12,065 nucleotides of DNA. Source: a virus (lineage: Duplodnaviria > Heunggongvirae > Uroviricota > Caudoviricetes). Positions within the stretch are counted from its first letter, which is position 1. The number at the start of each line of letters is the position of its first letter. Below are positions 6,356 through 12,065 of the stretch, piece after piece. A program made the translations under genes and the position numbers. The notes beneath the pieces were generated by a model. The model did not search any database. It was not told the origin of the DNA and saw only the letters and a program-made list of their open reading frames with translations. The stretch lies in IMG/VR virus record IMGVR_UViG_2579778856_000001; one strand, 5' to 3'.

Positions 6356-7050
6356 TGTGAGTTCAACGGGTCGATGCAACGCTGTCCCTAATCAAGGGGG
6401 ACGTTGCCATGAAACGAAGAACTCGTATTAACTACACGCCAGAGCAAAAGGTGATTATTTGGGACAGATATAAGCAAGGTGATTCCCTGCATGATATCCC
6501 CCAGAATGTTCGACAGATTTCACTCTACTATCATGCCTACAATCCACCAGGCCGGTGGCTACCGTCCTCCCGTGCGAAAGCGGCACCGGTTAGCGTTTTC
6601 GCTTGATGAAAAAGAGGAGATATCCAGAGGACTGGTAGCAAAACGCATCATCAGGGACATCGCTGCTAAATTATCAATAGCTCCCTCAACGATTAGCCGC
6701 GAGATCAGGAGGCACGGCGGTGCAAAACAATACCGTGCAGCAAAAGCCGATCCTGCTGCGTGGGAAAATGCTCTGAGACCAAAACCTTGCAAGCTAATTG
6801 AAAGCCCCACATTGTGTAAAATCATTGCAGAGAAGATGCATCAGGACTGGTCGCCGGAACAAATTGGCGGTTGGCTAAAACGCTGTTATCCCGATAATCA
6901 GGAAATGCATGTGTCACATGAAATGATTTATAAAACGCTTTTTATACCAACCCGGGGAGCTTTAAAAAAAGAGCTGCAGCAATGCCTCAGAAGCGGAAGA
7001 GTAGTGCGTAGATCCAAAACCTCATCACTTAAAGTAAACAGAGATACATT
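6356..7050 (+). mobile_element. IS30-family insertion sequence remnant (left IR plus the 5' two-thirds of the transposase gene; 3' end deleted)
   Basis: 6356-6380 TGTGAGTTCAACGGGTCGATGCAAC resembles the IS30 left terminal IR (TGTAGATTCAATTGGTCAACGCAAC, from memory). The transposase start lies about 53 bp inside, as in IS30. Homology to the IS30 transposase stops near aa ...KVNRDT (about 7048), well before the DDE domain. Confidence 0.7.
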
Positions 7051-7090
7051 CTGGTCACGAATGCCCGGTTGTTCGTGCTTTGCGTTTTAA
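6409..7090 (+). pseudogene. IS30-family transposase, frameshifted (in the C5 run near 6500-6505) and C-terminally truncated
   Basis: Frame 1 (6409..) MKRRTRINYTPEQKVIIWDRYKQGDSLHDI matches the IS30 N-terminus pattern MRRTFTAEEKASVFELWKNGTGFSEI. Frame 2 (from about 6489) ...RMFDRFHSTIMPTIHQAGGYRPPVRKRHRLAFSLDEKEEISRGL...WSPEQIGGWLKR...YKTLF... matches the IS30 HTH region (...ERKRAVAHLTLSEREEIRAGL...WSPEQISGWLRR...YKTLY). The switch between frames occurs at atcCCCCCag. The last about 13 codons (FWSRMPGCSCFAF) are non-homologous read-through. Confidence 0.75.
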
Positions 7091-7227
7091 TCGCATTTTA
7101 CAGTTTCTGCCTGCGTGCAGAGGTTGATGGTATTTTCTGAAAAAGCGGCTCGCTTTGCTAATGCATATGGCACAAATACAACAGTTTGTGTCATTCTGAC
7201 CCATCTTTATACCGCGACGGTGGAAAC

Positions 7228-9798
7228 ATGGATGAGCTGCTAACCCTTGGCTGCATTGCTTTATTCTTCGCACTGGTGGTGGTTCCCATCCTCGCGATTA
7301 TCGCGCTCAGCCGCAGCACGGCTGTTCGTTCTGAGCTGGCGACCCTGCGTCGCCGGGTGGAGGTGCTTGAGCAGCGCGGTGTGACTGAAGCACCCGCCAC
7401 AGTGGTAACAACTGTGCCGCAGAGTGTTTCGCAGATGGTTGTGCCTGTTGAAACGTCTTCGCCTGCGGTTAACATCGTGCTGTCGGAGCCTGTGGCTGAT
7501 GTCACGCCTGAGTCCGTTGACCCCTGGCGTCCACAACCGAAGCCGCAAAACGAGGCGCTACCCACACCAGCGGTCGAACAATCTTCCGCTTTTGGTGGGG
7601 TGATGTCGTCCCTGGTGCGCTGGTTTATGCAGGGCAACCCGCTGGCAAAGCTGGGTATTCTGCTTCTCTTCCTTGGCTTCTCCTTCCTGCTGCGTTATAC
7701 GGTTGAACACTCCCTGTTCCCGCTTGAGCTACGTCTGGTGGCGACTTCGCTGTTTGCGATTGCCCTGCTGGTAGTGGGCTGGCGATTGCGGCATAAACAG
7801 CTGGTTTATGCGCTGATCATACAGGGTGGAGCTACGGGGACGCTCTATCTCACCGTTTTTGGCGCATTCTGGCTCTGGCAGATGCTGCCGATGACGCTGG
7901 CGTTTGCATTACTGGTGGCGATTTGCGCGGCGAGCGTGGGACTGGCGATTATGCAAAAAGCGCTCAGCCTCGCGATGCTGGCAAGTATCGGTGGCTATCT
8001 GGCACCGCTGTTGCTTTCCACCGGCGGCGGTAGTCATGTGGCGCTCTTCTCTTTCTACCTTCTGCTTTCCGTCGGTATTCTCGCCATCAGCATCTGGCAA
8101 CACTGGCGCGAGCTTAATCTGCTTGGCCTGTTATTTACCTTTGGTATCGGCGGTCTTTGGGGACTCGACGGCTATCGATCAGAGTATTACCTGAGCAGTC
8201 AGCTTTTCCTGATAGCCAATACGATCATTTTTGGTGTGCTGAGCGTGGCGCTATCGCTACGAGCACAGGAGAAAGGTAAGCAGATTATTGATGGCGTGCT
8301 GTTGTTTGCATCGCCGCTGGTCGGTTTTGGCATGCAGTACGCCATAACCCGGCATATGGAATATGGTCCGGCGCTTAGCGCGCTGGGTTACGGCGGTTTC
8401 TATCTGGCGTTAGCATGGCTTGCATTGCGTCGCTATCCCTCTTTGGGGAGGCCGCTGGTGCTGGCGGCGCTGGCGCTGGGTGGGGCATTTACCACGCTCG
8501 CTATCCCACTGGCGCTTTCGGCCCGCTGGACGGCGATGGCCTGGGCGCTGGAAGGTCTCGGCATCCTCTGGCTGGGCGTGCAACAGCAGCAGCGGCGTAT
8601 GAGCTATAGCGGCACTGCGCTGCTGGTGCTGGCAGTGTGCAGCGCGCTGTGGGCGCAGATGAACGGGATGAGCGCGCTTTCTCTGGTGCTAATCTTTGCC
8701 GTACTCAGCCTCAGCTGGCTGGCTGCCGCCTGGCTGTGGCGCAATATTCAGTTGCAGGGTAGTTGGGTTCTGTTGGCTGGCGGTTTGATCTTCTGGATAA
8801 TCGCGCTCATTGGGGCATCGCAACTGGTGCTGAAAAAGGACTCGCTGGTGCTGTCTGGCGTGCTGGCGTTAATGGCGATATCGGTCTGGGGCTGGCGGAT
8901 TGTCTCTGGTCGTCTGGCCTGGTGGGAGCTGGATGTCAGCAAATGGTTGCTGTGGCCGACGATGCTGGTGATGCTGCTGTCTCAAATTTCACAACATGAG
9001 ATTTTTGCTGCGGGCTGGCAGAATCTGGCCTGGTGTCTGGCGTTACCCGCTGCGGGGGCATTGCTCTGGCGTGATGCTGAGACGTTGCCGCCGCGCCTCT
9101 CCAGACTGGCGCACCTTTCACTCTTCTGGATGATTCTGCTCGCGCTGGCGGCGGAGCTATTCTGGTTTGCGCAAGATCTGCCATGGGGCATGGCGGCGTG
9201 GGGCTCCGGCCTGATGATGGCCGCGGGGGGCCTGCTCATCTTTCTCGTTCATGAGGCGGTTCATCGTCAGCTATGGCCATTCCGAAGCTGGCCCGCACTC
9301 TACGCTTCTCAGGCGATGATACCGGTAGCTGCGGTATTGGTTGTTCTGCTAGTACTGACGAATTTGCAGGATGGCGTAGTTTATCGCCAGACCTGGCTGC
9401 CGCTGGTGAATCCACTGGAGGAGGGGGCCGCTTTTGCGCTACTGGGACTCATTGTATTTTATCGCGTTTCGCAGCGCTTTTTCCCGGTGCAGATTTCGGT
9501 ATGCCGTCCCTGGCCGCTCATTGCACTGCTGGCGCTTAGCTTCTGGTGGCTGAATGGCATCCTGCTGCGCGCATTGGCCTGGTACGGCGAAGTGCCCTGG
9601 AGCGCGGAAACACTGTGGCATTCGCGGCTGATTCAGACCTGTTTTGCCCTGTTCTGGATGCTGGCGGCATTAGTGGTGATGCTACGTGCGACCCGGCGTT
9701 GCTCACGTCGCGAATGGCTTTGTGGATCCGTATTGTTAGGGATTGTTATTGTGAAACTGATGTTGGTAGACAGTGCGCGTGGCGGCGGCCTGGCATGA
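7228..9798 (+). CDS. Large polytopic inner-membrane protein (856 aa). Architecture: N-terminal TM + coiled-coil + Pro-rich linker + more than 20 TM helices, as in DUF2339-family proteins. Probably chromosomal backbone
   Basis: ATG 7228 is preceded by GGTGGAAAC. The track's 7186 start lacks an RBS. Uninterrupted 870-codon frame. Very hydrophobic, L/A/W-rich repeats of predicted TM segments. Visibly higher GC than the flanking island genes. Family call is from recalled architecture only. Confidence 0.75.
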   Translation: MDELLTLGCIALFFALVVVPILAIIALSRSTAVRSELATLRRRVEVLEQRGVTEAPATVVTTVPQSVSQMVVPVETSSPAVNIVLSEPVADVTPESVDPWRPQPKPQNEALPTPAVEQSSAFGGVMSSLVRWFMQGNPLAKLGILLLFLGFSFLLRYTVEHSLFPLELRLVATSLFAIALLVVGWRLRHKQLVYALIIQGGATGTLYLTVFGAFWLWQMLPMTLAFALLVAICAASVGLAIMQKALSLAMLASIGGYLAPLLLSTGGGSHVALFSFYLLLSVGILAISIWQHWRELNLLGLLFTFGIGGLWGLDGYRSEYYLSSQLFLIANTIIFGVLSVALSLRAQEKGKQIIDGVLLFASPLVGFGMQYAITRHMEYGPALSALGYGGFYLALAWLALRRYPSLGRPLVLAALALGGAFTTLAIPLALSARWTAMAWALEGLGILWLGVQQQQRRMSYSGTALLVLAVCSALWAQMNGMSALSLVLIFAVLSLSWLAAAWLWRNIQLQGSWVLLAGGLIFWIIALIGASQLVLKKDSLVLSGVLALMAISVWGWRIVSGRLAWWELDVSKWLLWPTMLVMLLSQISQHEIFAAGWQNLAWCLALPAAGALLWRDAETLPPRLSRLAHLSLFWMILLALAAELFWFAQDLPWGMAAWGSGLMMAAGGLLIFLVHEAVHRQLWPFRSWPALYASQAMIPVAAVLVVLLVLTNLQDGVVYRQTWLPLVNPLEEGAAFALLGLIVFYRVSQRFFPVQISVCRPWPLIALLALSFWWLNGILLRALAWYGEVPWSAETLWHSRLIQTCFALFWMLAALVVMLRATRRCSRREWLCGSVLLGIVIVKLMLVDSARGGGLA

Positions 9799-9918
9799 TC
9801 AGACATGAGATAAATGAAGGGGGATCCGTGAGATAAATAACGAATTGGAGTGGGTTAACATGGGTTCTGGTGAACAGAACTGAAATTCTTTTCCGCTATA
9901 CGATAGATAAGTCGGGCA

Positions 9919-9948
9919 TTGAAATCATCCTTCCTGGCAACTTAGAAT
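9919..9948 (+). promoter_or_regulatory. Sigma70-like promoter TTGAAA-17 bp-TAGAAT upstream of the 53-aa ORF
   Basis: Read directly: TTGAAA (9919-9924), 17-nt spacer, TAGAAT (9943-9948). Predicted TSS about 9955, leaving a roughly 37-nt leader to ATG 9992. Confidence 0.4.
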
Positions 9949-9991
9949 CGAGTTTGCTGAAACATGACCCGCAACAAAAAGGATGATTCCA

Positions 9992-10153
9992 ATGACTACT
10001 CAAAACAATAAGCATGATAGCCTGGATTACTCAGAAAAGCCCAAAAGCAAGCACATCGTGACGTTCGAGCGCGATTCCGGTAGAAAAGGAGAATCGTCTT
10101 CCTCTGCCAATAAAACCACTATGCCGGCAGCCCCTGCCCCAGGGAAAAAATAA
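9992..10153 (+). CDS. Small hydrophilic protein (53 aa; MTTQNNKHDSLDYSEKPKSKHIVTFERDSGRKGESSSSANKTTMPAAPAPGKK); not in the supplied ORF track (below its length cut-off)
   Basis: ATG 9992 has AAGGA 8 nt upstream and the promoter above. K/S-rich, no TM, predicted disordered. Stop TAA 10151-10153 lies 3 nt from the stop of the convergent membrane gene. Confidence 0.4.
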   Translation: MTTQNNKHDSLDYSEKPKSKHIVTFERDSGRKGESSSSANKTTMPAAPAPGKK

Positions 10154-10156
10154 ACA

Positions 10157-10789
10157 TCATTCATCGTTCGTTGCACGAACGCGCCTGATCTCCACTCTGG
10201 CAATCTGATCTGCTGGAATATAGGTTGCCAGAGCTCCCCAGTACTTATCAACCACGCCTTTATACTCTTCCCATTCGTTACTGCCTGAAGGGCTGCTGTG
10301 CGTGACGTAAAGAACCATATCGCCTTTATTCCCCAGGGTAAACGGACCGTTAGGCCACTCTTCAAAGTTCCCTGGCAGCCGTGACATCATACCGGAACCA
10401 TCGCGAAGAATCACTCTGACCTCGGTAACGCTGAAGCCTGTTTGATCAAACATTGCCTGCCATGCTGAGCTGGTATCGTCAGACCATGAAATATCATTAT
10501 TCCACAGTAATCTGTACATCCATTTGCGACCGTACCTGCGCCACCACGCACCGCATGTAAGGGCACACAGAAGTGCTGGTGGTGTTGCCAGCCAGGCATT
10601 CAGACCTGCCCACATAACAGCCTGGTAAGCCATCATTGCTGTCAGGCCAAAAATCAGCGAAGAAAAAGTCACCTCAATGGGCTTGTGGTGATCCTTCAGT
10701 CCCACATTCGCAATAAAATACCCAATATAGCCACTGGTCAGGGTCACCAGTGTTGCCCATGGCAGATTTAACAACGAAACGTCAAACAT
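10157..10789 (-). CDS. Hypothetical membrane protein (210 aa): three N-terminal TM helices plus about 120-aa soluble C-terminal domain
   Basis: Start ATG 10789 (MFDVSLLNLPWATLVTL...) is preceded by GGGAGAAAAT. The track's longer start (10867) would run through the mor terminator hairpin and is rejected. TM segments approximately at aa 8-30, 38-62 and 68-83. The C-terminal domain ...GNKGDMVLYVTHSSPSGSNEWEEYKGVVDKYWGALATYIPADQIARVEIRRV is of unknown family. Confidence 0.65.
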   Translation of the reverse strand: MFDVSLLNLPWATLVTLTSGYIGYFIANVGLKDHHKPIEVTFSSLIFGLTAMMAYQAVMWAGLNAWLATPPALLCALTCGAWWRRYGRKWMYRLLWNNDISWSDDTSSAWQAMFDQTGFSVTEVRVILRDGSGMMSRLPGNFEEWPNGPFTLGNKGDMVLYVTHSSPSGSNEWEEYKGVVDKYWGALATYIPADQIARVEIRRVRATNDE

Positions 10790-10824
10790 ATTTTCTCCCT
10801 GCATCCTGAATACTAAAGAGAGAG

Positions 10825-10866
10825 CATAAAAAAAGCACGGTAAGGGGTCTACCGTGCTTTTATACA
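10825..10866 (-). terminator. Rho-independent terminator of the gemA-mor transcript (hairpin AAAGCACGGTA-AGGGGTC-TACCGTGCTTT; T7 run on the minus strand); partly bidirectional
   Basis: 11-bp perfect stem 10832-10842 / 10850-10860, 7-nt loop. The minus strand continues TTTTTTTAT (complement of 10825-10831). The plus strand continues TTTTATAC. It lies 38 bp downstream of the mor stop. Confidence 0.65.
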
Positions 10867-10903
10867 ATAAGGAGATTTTTGAAAGGACTTTAACAAGCAG
10901 GAA

Positions 10904-11302
10904 TTATCTGGATTTGTTAACGTCTTTCGTCTCCTCTGGCAGATCTTCATCAAACAACCTGCCCTGCATCCGATCCAGTTCTTCTTTTCTGACCCGCTTA
11001 ACCACGCTGTAGACCCACTGAAGCGAAACACCAAACTTGCGGGCCAGTTCGTGGTGGTTGCGTCCGTTAAACTCCCTGAAGATTTCCCGGTCGCGCTGAC
11101 TGACCTTCCATACCATGCCCATCGGGAAATAAACGTTTTGCCCGCCCCAGACCTGCATCATTCGGTTCGCGACGGCCTGACCAATCTGGTCGGCAACTTC
11201 GGGCTCAATATCAATAATCTCGCGAACGGTCTCAGAGGTATGCTGTGCCAGTTCCACCAGGAGTTCCGGCCCCTTACTTCGAAACTGATTCAGGTCGCTC
11301 AT
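10904..11302 (-). CDS. mor: Mor-family transcriptional activator (phage Mu middle-operon regulator / C family), 132 aa
   Basis: MSDLNQFRSKGPELLVELAQHT...VYFPMGMVWKVSQRDREIFREFNGRNHHELARKFGVSLQWVYSVVKRVRKEE. The RDxxIxxxFNGxNxxELAxK(F/Y)G(V/L)Sxxx(V/I)Y C-terminal HTH is characteristic of the Mor/C family. RBS GGAGTCAAAC-ATG. Overlaps the gemA-like 3' end by 29 bp. Confidence 0.75.
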   Translation of the reverse strand: MSDLNQFRSKGPELLVELAQHTSETVREIIDIEPEVADQIGQAVANRMMQVWGGQNVYFPMGMVWKVSQRDREIFREFNGRNHHELARKFGVSLQWVYSVVKRVRKEELDRMQGRLFDEDLPEETKDVNKSR

Positions 11303-11726
11303 GTTTGACTCCCGCAGCTCTGCGCTGCCACTTCTTCAGTTTCTCAATAACACTGCTTGCCTGTTCAGTACTGAGCCAGCGCAGGGCGCTGATGCCCGTT
11401 TCCCGCTTGATCCACCGCGCTAATGCATTTTCTGAACGGTCACGAACAATGCCGGCAGCAGCCATTTCAAGCCATAGCGCACGGATTTTCCTGGACTGCG
11501 GATGGTTATCCAGCGGTAAACCGGAGCTGGCTTTTCCGGCAGGCTTAACGCGAAAGCCTTTCCTTTTCATGGATTCCAGCACGCAGTTTAGTTGTGTGGT
11601 ATCCATTCCTTTGGTTGAGGCTTTACCGGTCAGCCCCTGTAACATCTGGCGGTAGGTGTCTTCATCCATACCCAGTTCATTACGGGCAATATGAATGAGC
11701 TGGATAAGACGTTGTTTAGTCATCAT
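11274..11726 (-). CDS. gemA: Mu gp16/GemA-like protein (DUF1018 family), 150 aa
   Basis: From the ATGATG at 11726, with AGGAG 5 nt upstream: MMTKQRLIQLIHIARNELGMDEDTYRQMLQGLTGKASTKGMDTTQLNCVLESMKRKGF... The N-terminal motif is typical of Mu-like gp16/GemA proteins, as is the location immediately upstream of and overlapping mor. The track's earlier start (11765) is in frame but lacks an RBS. Confidence 0.7.
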   Translation of the reverse strand: MMTKQRLIQLIHIARNELGMDEDTYRQMLQGLTGKASTKGMDTTQLNCVLESMKRKGFRVKPAGKASSGLPLDNHPQSRKIRALWLEMAAAGIVRDRSENALARWIKRETGISALRWLSTEQASSVIEKLKKWQRRAAGVKHERPESVSK

Positions 11727-12065
11727 CGTTGCTCCTTTTACCTGCGCCACCGATATAATCGACATATAAAGGAAGCGCCACAGGCCAGCACAGGAACATC
11801 ACCGACCAGCTAATCCAGTAGCCAGCACCACTGTAACGTGAATAAAACCCTGAACGGCGGTGCAGTTCAGCAGTACACCAACCGACAAAACAATACCAGA
11901 ACAGGGCACATACAACAGATTCAGCCGTCATTCTGAATATCCCCCCAACTGATATGAATATTACGGGCAGCAATGACAGGGTCGTTATTCCACCATGCAC
12001 CTGACATGTATTTTTCAACCTGTTCGCGTCCGGCAATAACACCAATTGTGATCCCCGGCCTGACG
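11716..12065 (-). CDS. Hypothetical small membrane protein, partial (frame open to the window end); its 3' end overlaps the gemA-like start
   Basis: Minus-strand frame is open from the window edge (12065) to TAA at 11716-11718. Predicted product has two hydrophobic segments (LSLLPVIFISVGGIF, VVCALFWYCFVGWCTA) and an acidic tail. The internal TTG/GTG start at 12045/12042 is uncertain. Confidence 0.4.
   Translation of the reverse strand, partial: SGRGSQLVLLPDANRLKNTCQVHGGITTLSLLPVIFISVGGIFRMTAESVVCALFWYCFVGWCTAELHRRSGFYSRYSGAGYWISWSVMFLCWPVALPLYVDYIGGAGKRSNDDD

Follow-up and report, generated by a model that had tools for sequence, protein, structure and literature searches.

A gene for a 210-amino acid (aa) membrane protein lies directly after mor in the virus record IMGVR_UViG_2579778856_000001, whose whole analysed stretch of 12,065 nucleotides (nt) is called the window here. 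This gene, referred to as the cargo gene, would be turned on by the activator Mor through a TTAA-type box (10894-10879) beside the terminator of the early transcript, and not through the terminator hairpin itself; this reading, drawn from sequence comparison, was given a probability of about 0.5. The element of interest is this box, and neither the hairpin nor the hexamer TAGTAT, which a first-pass annotation of the window had proposed as activator site and -10, respectively. The proposed regulation would be a new variant of the known arrangement at promoter Pm of phage Mu, and the cargo is an uncharacterised, widely mobile two-gene cassette. The gene order was gemA, mor and the cargo open reading frame (ORF), all on the minus strand, with a spacer of 115 nt between mor and the cargo ORF. 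The elements concerned were, in window coordinates:

10879-10894, minus strand: Mor-box-like dyad GTTAA-AGTCCT-TTCAA, 9 nt past the mor stop codon and before the terminator
10851-10856, minus strand: CACGGT, candidate weak -10, 30.5 base pairs (bp) from the box centre and within the terminator 5' arm
10828-10861, minus strand: intrinsic terminator of the early gemA-mor transcript (stem AAAAGCACGGTAG / TTACCGTGCTTTT, loop ACCCC, run of seven T)
10810-10815, minus strand: TAGTAT, the earlier -10 candidate, unsupported
10794-10800, minus strand: ribosome-binding site AGGGAGA, read from sequence
10157-10789, minus strand: cargo gene for a 210-aa inner-membrane protein with three transmembrane (TM) helices and a predicted cytoplasmic Sm/SH3-like beta-barrel
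10904-11302, minus strand: mor (Pfam Mor, E 1e-43), the only Mor/C-family activator gene of the prophage
11274-11765, minus strand: gemA (Pfam GemA, 1e-40), whose RefSeq start corresponds to 11723

The Mor dimer site at Mu spans 16 bp and consists of two 5-bp inverted repeats with a G/C-rich hexanucleotide between them; the Mor element covers -51 to -36 and takes the place of a -35 (PMC4390567, PMC4287176). Dependence of Mu Pm on Mor is credited to Artsimovitch and Howe (1996), as cited in PMC4287176 and PMC4390567. In the Mu genome (L029) the box AGTAA-AGCCGG-TTAAT (674-689) began 2 nt past the mor stop codon and overlapped the annotated early terminator in its 5' arm and loop (PMC4287176). 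With the numbering of Pm inferred from published coordinates, the only suitably placed nAnnnT hexamer was TATCCT, which began 30.5 bp from the dyad centre, the dyad of such promoters being centred at about -43.5. The comparison with Mu made in the first-pass annotation was therefore apt, since in Mu the activator box does overlap the early terminator, but its order of mor, Pm and C was incomplete: E18, E19 (4 TM) and E20 (1 TM) lie between Pm and C. The span containing E19 and E20 was L029 749-1451, and their position suggests that membrane proteins recur in the first Mor-dependent slot of Mu-like phages.

In the complete E. coli copy (L028) of the prophage to which the window box belongs, a composite motif was common to two late-operon leaders and occurred nowhere else. 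Scanning L028 for nTAA-N6-TT[AC]A with an nAnnnT hexamer at +30.5 gave seven readings, which were five other sites, the cargo site, and the palindromic holin site read in reverse. Every reading was intergenic, and no box match inside a gene had a valid hexamer. The six sites were, in L028 coordinates:

12499-12541, plus strand: box with hexamer GATGCT, followed by the holin gene
19897-19939, plus strand: box with hexamer CAAACT, followed by a head gene at 19970
25814-25856, plus strand: box with hexamer CATACT, followed by tail assembly
32444-32486, plus strand: box with hexamer AATACT, followed by baseplate W
11095-11053, minus strand: box with hexamer CATCAT, followed by a Dam-like methylase gene
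1526, minus strand: box with hexamer CACGGT, followed by the cargo gene (the window box, 10894-10879)

BcepMu (L043) contained just two nTAA-N6-TTAn sites in 36.7 kb, at 11485 and 18812 on the plus strand. These preceded the holin and gp32 genes, and both had nAnnnT at +30.5. The spacer AGCCGA of the BcepMu boxes was close to the AGCCGG of Mu. Only one Mor/C-family gene was present per phage in the prophage and in BcepMu, so the boxes should be those of Mor and the cascade should have two tiers, not three. The prophage Mor was 32% identical to Mu Mor and 56% identical to BcepMu Mor, the BcepMu genome having 63% G+C. The predicted Mor regulon of BcepMu-type phages comprises the lysis, head, tail and baseplate operons and the Dam-like methylase gene. 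The box before the methylase gene recalls Mu Pmom. The hexamers of the regulon usually had the form nAnnCT. A perfect palindromic box (TTTAAAGTGCCTTAAA) also lay at L028 38257-38272, inside the Gin-like recombinase gene at the prophage right end; it had no -10-like hexamer on either side and may be a chance occurrence.

The window box matched the Mu-Pm-type dyad (5-N6-5 with TAA and TTA cores) at seven of eight core positions. Scored with a weight matrix derived from the other five prophage sites, it came ninth among 81,914 positions; once those training sites and their readings on the reverse strand are set aside, no intergenic position scored higher. By chance, the 115-nt spacer would be expected to contain 0.013 matches scoring at least as well. 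Its match to the other sites of the phage makes 10894-10879 a predicted Mor-binding dyad. Neither CACGGT nor TAGTAT had a -35 partner of at least 4/6 or a TGn extended -10, as expected for a promoter of the Mu Pm type. Of two other placements of a -10, the first was rejected and the second set aside. A promoter directed antisense into mor would have TTAACG as its +30.5 hexamer on the plus strand, and TATAAA (10864-10859) lies 22.5 bp from the box centre and was absent from Serratia sp. Ag1.

Relatives with a homologue of the 210-aa protein directly after mor were found in Klebsiella, Serratia, Citrobacter, Salmonella, Proteus, Arsenophonus, Symbiopectobacterium and Pantoea. The boxes among relatives fell into three layouts. 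Layout (a), in Arsenophonus, Symbiopectobacterium and Phlomobacter, had the box tATAA-CGCACT-TTAAg overlapping the hairpin 5' arm and TATCAT or TATTAT exactly at +30.5, past the T-run, which is the layout of Mu Pm. Layout (b), in Citrobacter braakii and Salmonella (Poona, diarizonae, Thompson), had a perfect TTAA-N6-TTAA 1-4 nt past the mor stop codon and CAATAT or CAACAT exactly at +30.5, abutting the hairpin; the N6 and the 22-nt spacer were unrelated among these lineages. The box patterns of layouts (a) and (b) each occurred in 0.0015-0.005 of shuffles. Layout (c), in the window, Serratia sp. Ag1, two other E. coli variants and Proteus, consisted of the box, ~22 nt and the hairpin, a spacing that puts the +30.5 position within the stem. 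The presence of the box tracked the Mor recognition helix: lineages with a box had S(L/I)QW(V/I)YS(V/I)VK or a near variant, and the Klebsiella-type Mor had TERGLRKLIER with no TTAA box. PhiKM, which is without the cassette, was also without the box.

The hairpin after mor is an intrinsic terminator and not a protein site. It comprised 13 pairs (one G-U, five G-C) around a 5-nt loop from 10861 to 10831, followed by seven T to 10828, with a folding free energy (dG) of -16.6 kcal/mol. The terminator dyad reported in the first-pass annotation was thus confirmed, and its distance of 39 nt from the T-run to the ATG was close to the actual 38 nt. The hairpin centre (10846) was 57 nt from the ATG. 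A hairpin and T-run followed mor in every relative compared, with at least four unrelated stem sequences. These were GCACGGTAG, GGGCAGA, AGATGAGC, GCGCAATGG, ACACAGTGG and GCACT..., each with a T-run next to it, and the group of the window had GCACGGT(A/G)G. Predicted stability among relatives ranged from -5.5 to -17.4 kcal/mol. Such retention of structure and place, while the sequence varies freely, is the hallmark of an RNA terminator. On the plus strand, 10828-10861 reads as seven A before the hairpin and TTTTAT after it, and the hairpin might also stop an antisense transcript from the promoter of the small convergent ORF (described below) before mor; this two-way character was not common to most relatives.

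The proposed mechanism runs as follows. The early gemA-mor transcript would stop at the hairpin. During lytic growth, Mor would bind the box at 10894-10879 and form a promoter of the Mu Pm type, with its -10 position inside the upstream terminator arm. The Mor-dependent start would lie at ~10844-10850, within the hairpin, and the resulting RNA, lacking the 5' arm, would pass the terminator into the cargo gene. In layouts (b) and (c) alike, a start 6-8 nt past the hexamer would be inside the 5' arm or loop of the terminator. Folding predictions were consistent with this scheme. An RNA of the window begun at or after 10852 formed no hairpin (0.0 vs -17.1 kcal/mol), and truncation weakened the hairpins of Citrobacter (-16.2 to -5.9 kcal/mol) and S. 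marcescens (-13.5 to -5.3 kcal/mol). A truncated RNA cannot fold the terminator, and Mor-initiated transcripts would therefore pass. Because the phage has a single Mor, with boxes before the late operons, a Mor-dependent cargo gene would be on together with the late genes and not in the lysogen.

Several observations weigh against activation by Mor. The window box is the weakest of the six sites, with TTCAA in place of TTAAA/T, and scored 10 bits vs 30-37 for the training sites, the latter values being inflated by training. The TT[AC]A of the relaxed box pattern, which occurred in 0.003 (0.3%) of spacer shuffles, was set only after the window site had been seen. CACGGT is G+C-rich and matches nAnnnT only at A2 and T6. 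Within layout (c) the hexamer was not nAnnnT in an E. coli variant (L035; GCAATG) or in Proteus (L037; CCCACT), and in Serratia sp. Ag1 the CACGGT was at 29.5, 1 bp out of register. The window layout also looks like the Citrobacter layout minus ~13 bp that held CAATAT, and such a deletion of a good -10 would mean that the promoter may be crippled in the window. The weak hexamer and this apparent deletion are the reason for a probability of only about 0.5. They equally suit a reading in which the cargo gene receives low-level read-through from early (Pe) transcripts and the box is a decaying relic of a site that works in relatives, as does the failure to find an autonomous sigma-70 promoter above chance on the cargo strand. 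Read-through as the sole source of expression was nevertheless considered somewhat unlikely. Little of it is expected past a terminator as strong as this one, nine box positions were identical between the window and Serratia sp. Ag1 despite ~30% divergence of the N6 and the next 22 nt, and the box is missing where the cassette is missing, in PhiKM.

Expression from a weak constitutive promoter within the terminator, as in a classic moron serving lysogenic conversion or exclusion, was judged decidedly unlikely. The candidate, TAGACC-17-TATGCT (10851-10823), was the best sigma-70-like match on the cargo strand (8/12), its TAT(G/T)CT after the T-run recurs behind three unrelated hairpins, and unrelated prophages and islands carry members of the family as accessory insertions. 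An 8/12 match is however at shuffle level (mean of 1.08 such matches per region in shuffled sequence), a T-run followed by A-T is ordinary terminator context, and the promoter that is conserved and looks constitutive is that of the opposing small ORF, whose transcription would interfere with the cargo gene. The proposal of the first-pass annotation, with Mor on the terminator dyad (centre 10846) and TAGTAT as the -10, was very improbable. In its favour, the dyad centre lies 31 bp from TAGTAT, near the 30.5 bp of Mu Pm, and a Mor box truly overlaps the terminator in Mu and in the Arsenophonus-group relatives. Its half-sites (GGTA/TACC) are however not of the TTAA type and its TA cores (TA-N7-TA) are one bp too close, while the same Mor must recognise TTAA-N6-TTAA at five sites elsewhere. 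Within 42 kb the half-site GCACGGTA occurred only in the hairpin, and nowhere else in the prophage, with one-mismatch matches at chance (35 observed vs 30 expected), and relatives with a related Mor had unrelated stems. TAGTAT lacked a -35 partner and was absent from Serratia sp. Ag1 despite an identical hairpin. It lies 21-26 nt from the ATG instead of the 26-31 nt first given, and taking it as -12 to -7 would put the dyad at about -43 instead of -50. What stands of the earlier proposal of Mor-activated cargo is that the gene is cargo, since PhiKM and BcepMu are without the module, and that a Mor-type dyad lies between mor and the gene; the identification of that dyad with the terminator does not. 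Its placing of the gene outside the late lytic programme is not supported either, because the boxes of the single Mor precede the lysis, head, tail and baseplate operons.

The TAT(G/T)CT after the T-run was seen behind three unrelated hairpins (window 10823-10828, L013, L035, L037). It resembles the nAnnCT -10s of the predicted Mor promoters and has no box 30.5 bp upstream. Class-I-type activation of this hexamer, with the box at -60.5 to -71.5, was set aside; the distances of 47.5, 57.5 and 58.5 bp were not whole helical turns from 30.5.

The cargo gene starts with an ATG at 10789 (MFD...), which was kept in 34 homologues. AlphaFold2 on the homologue alignment (predicted local distance difference test score 84) placed TM helices at 11-27, 37-60 and 65-97 and a C-terminal beta domain at 119-205. 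This structure and the topology prediction agreed with the three TM helices and soluble domain noted in the first pass. By positive-inside counting, charged residues flank loop 1 and follow TM3, a distribution that points to an outside N-terminus and a cytoplasmic beta domain. Invariant polar residues were found in loop 1 (H35) and in the C-domain (S101, D104, D157, T163, H164, R202).

The protein matched phrog_12870 and had 72 close relatives; a profile search extended these to 522 clusters at 50% identity, nearly all of ~205 aa. DUF6338 (PF19865), a membrane protein family of similar length (~205 aa), was matched weakly by 18 of 34 relatives, from TM2-TM3 into the start of the C-domain. The best of these relatives scored 23.9-25.9 bits against a gathering cut-off of 26.5, and the window protein, with no match to DUF6338 at E<=1, was not placed in the family. 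No literature on the function of DUF6338 was found. Searches of PADLOC 2.0 gave no match at E<=1 for the cargo protein or the small protein encoded beside it, and searches of NCBIfam, PDB sequences and Rfam returned nothing. A class I holin was considered and rejected. The topology fits, yet such holins are small, have a short charged tail and are encoded in the lysis cassette, and the protein has a folded domain of 110 aa and its gene is far from the holin and SLT genes of the phage itself; Foldseek matches to three-TM holins were weak (E>=0.03) and covered the TM part only.

The cargo gene faces a small convergent ORF, the two stop codons being 3 nt apart. The features of this ORF were:

9919-9948, plus strand: sigma-70-like promoter TTGAAA-18-TAGAAT (10/12) of the small ORF
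9983-10153, plus strand: small hydrophilic ORF of 56 aa (53 aa from the RefSeq start at 9992), matching phrog_15726 (E 1e-41), with the C-terminal tail PAAPAPGKK

No terminator was found between the small ORF and the cargo gene, so the small-ORF transcript should run antisense through the cargo gene. The hexamers and spacing of the small-ORF promoter were kept in most of the diverged enteric lineages examined, including Klebsiella, with different flanks; no such promoter was found in Proteus (L037). A convergent ORF of 33-62 aa followed the cargo homologue in most contexts examined and was not evident in Pantoea (L016), Arsenophonus (L017) or Phlomobacter (L025). The small proteins shared an (S/N)(Y/F)xP(K/Q) motif and a C-terminal PPPxPxKK tail, and those from outside the enterics also carried GVxGN(H/Y)xPxT.

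From these comparisons the cargo gene and the small convergent ORF form a mobile two-gene cassette of Gamma- and Alphaproteobacteria. The cassette occurred in islands of Bradyrhizobium, Afipia, Devosia and Rhizobiaceae, beside serine recombinases or a DNA methylase, and was inserted in an HK97-like prophage between its head-connector and head-closure genes. In a Sphingomonadales locus the cargo homologue lay beside a DUF4411 and a Peptidase_M78 gene, with a candidate small ORF of 33 aa whose homology is uncertain. An upstream helix-turn-helix gene in Bradyrhizobium was considered as a dedicated regulator and rejected as a truncated serine recombinase, which was full-length in L019 and L022. 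In PhiKM and BcepMu mor was followed by the genome end, with no cassette; in KP12 only ~480 bp, which were left unread, separated the mor match from the record end. In G+C content the cassette was not compositionally distinct.

As to function, the membrane protein might be an inner-membrane effector of exclusion, abortive infection or lysis modulation, a guess of low confidence. An equally low-confidence guess is that the proline/lysine-tailed small protein restrains this effector by binding its SH3/Sm-like domain; a small barrel facing a PxxPxK-like tail invites the conjecture of direct binding. The lysogen would express the small ORF, with a transcript that crosses the cargo gene in the antisense direction. 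One speculative and unlikely extension is a widely mobile module in which a holin-like three-TM protein with a cytoplasmic SH3/Sm-like barrel is held by a constitutive, proline/lysine-tailed micro-protein and antisense RNA and, in Mu-like phages, released by the Mor promoter in the terminator. Such a module would be a switch of the toxin-antidote type that acts in exclusion, abortive infection or the timing of lysis.

Chromosomal DNA of many E. coli matched the region from 9800 to 12065 at 99.8% identity, and in strain G749 the same DNA forms the left end of a 38.3-kb prophage within gabP. The right end of the window is thus the left end of a BcepMu-like (Mu-like) transposable E. coli prophage. 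Prophage matches were found in 767 of 5,426 complete E. coli genomes, and most of the query was present in 114 of 780 matching E. coli records. The end itself was marked by the following:

9796-9838, plus strand: prophage left end TGATCAG..., the same sequence occurring at another host junction in E. coli G749
9807-9815 and 9830-9838, plus strand: two GAGATAAAT repeats, presumed transposase-binding sites

At the G749 junction a 6-bp duplication (CATTCC) flanked the prophage in gabP, and in the window the prophage end interrupted a DUF2339 gene at 9796. With the prophage ending there in a cut host gene, the 210-aa gene forms the outer edge of the leftward early region and is the final gene ahead of the left end. 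This region of the prophage contained a repressor, ner-like genes, a Tn552-type transposase, an ExeA-like protein, gam, gemA and mor. The rightward region contained lysis, head and P2-like tail genes, and a Gin-like invertase was also present. The nearest isolated phages were members of Bcepmuvirus (PhiKM, PQ738613; BcepMu, AY539836).

The interrupted DUF2339 gene (7186-9798, plus strand) would encode a membrane protein of 870 aa with its stop codon supplied by the terminal TGA of the phage; the gene was found in 507 of 5,426 complete E. coli genomes. Left of the prophage lay what appears to be an older island. By translation alone, it held a RadC-like ORF (379-849), a 314-aa ORF (881-1825) that reads like a tyrosine recombinase, and an overlapping ORF pair (6409-7090) that looks like a frameshifted IS30-type transposase.

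The arrangement after mor resembled Mu Pm in several respects. In both, a 5-N6-5 dyad with TAA/TTA cores lay only a few nt past mor, an early terminator lay in the same spacer, and there was no -35; small membrane proteins lie downstream in Mu as well (E19, E20). The candidate hexamer of the window occupies the Mu distance of 30.5 bp from the dyad centre and matches nAnnnT only at A2 and T6. In contrast to Mu, the window box was upstream of and separate from the terminator, with the predicted start inside the hairpin and not beyond it. The candidate -10 was weak, there was no second activator C, and the same Mor appears to serve the late promoters. Unlike Mu, BcepMu and PhiKM, the prophage has its downstream gene in a mobile cassette.

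With the BcepMu-like phages the prophage shared an inverted early region with gemA-mor beside the left end, an ExeA-like protein, a Tn552-type transposase, P2-like tail genes, random insertion with a short target duplication, and the same placing of predicted Mor boxes before holin and head genes. BcepMu and PhiKM end shortly after mor, whereas the prophage and many enteric relatives carry a ~1.05-kb module of box, terminator, cargo gene and small ORF. The module is like morons in being present or absent among close, collinear relatives and in occurring in unrelated mobile contexts, and unlike them in that the cargo gene has no recognisable promoter of its own or terminator after it and is part of a convergent gene pair.

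HK97 gp15, lambda RexB and T4 Imm are small inner-membrane proteins of exclusion or abortive infection, encoded as dispensable cargo of the kind that temperate phages carry. Unlike these, the cargo protein has a predicted expression that is lytic and not lysogenic, and no sequence or fold relationship to them was found.

For phages of the BcepMu type these results provide a predicted, testable Mor regulon, with one activator, TTAA-N6-TTAA boxes and the geometry of Mu Pm. The overlap of terminator and promoter known from Mu appears rearranged in relatives, with the predicted start within the stem in several. A start in the stem would be a simple way for one transcript to stop at, and another to pass, the same hairpin. 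The prophage is common in clinical E. coli, and its cassette occupies accessory positions in unrelated prophages; new exclusion and defence genes have come from positions of this kind.

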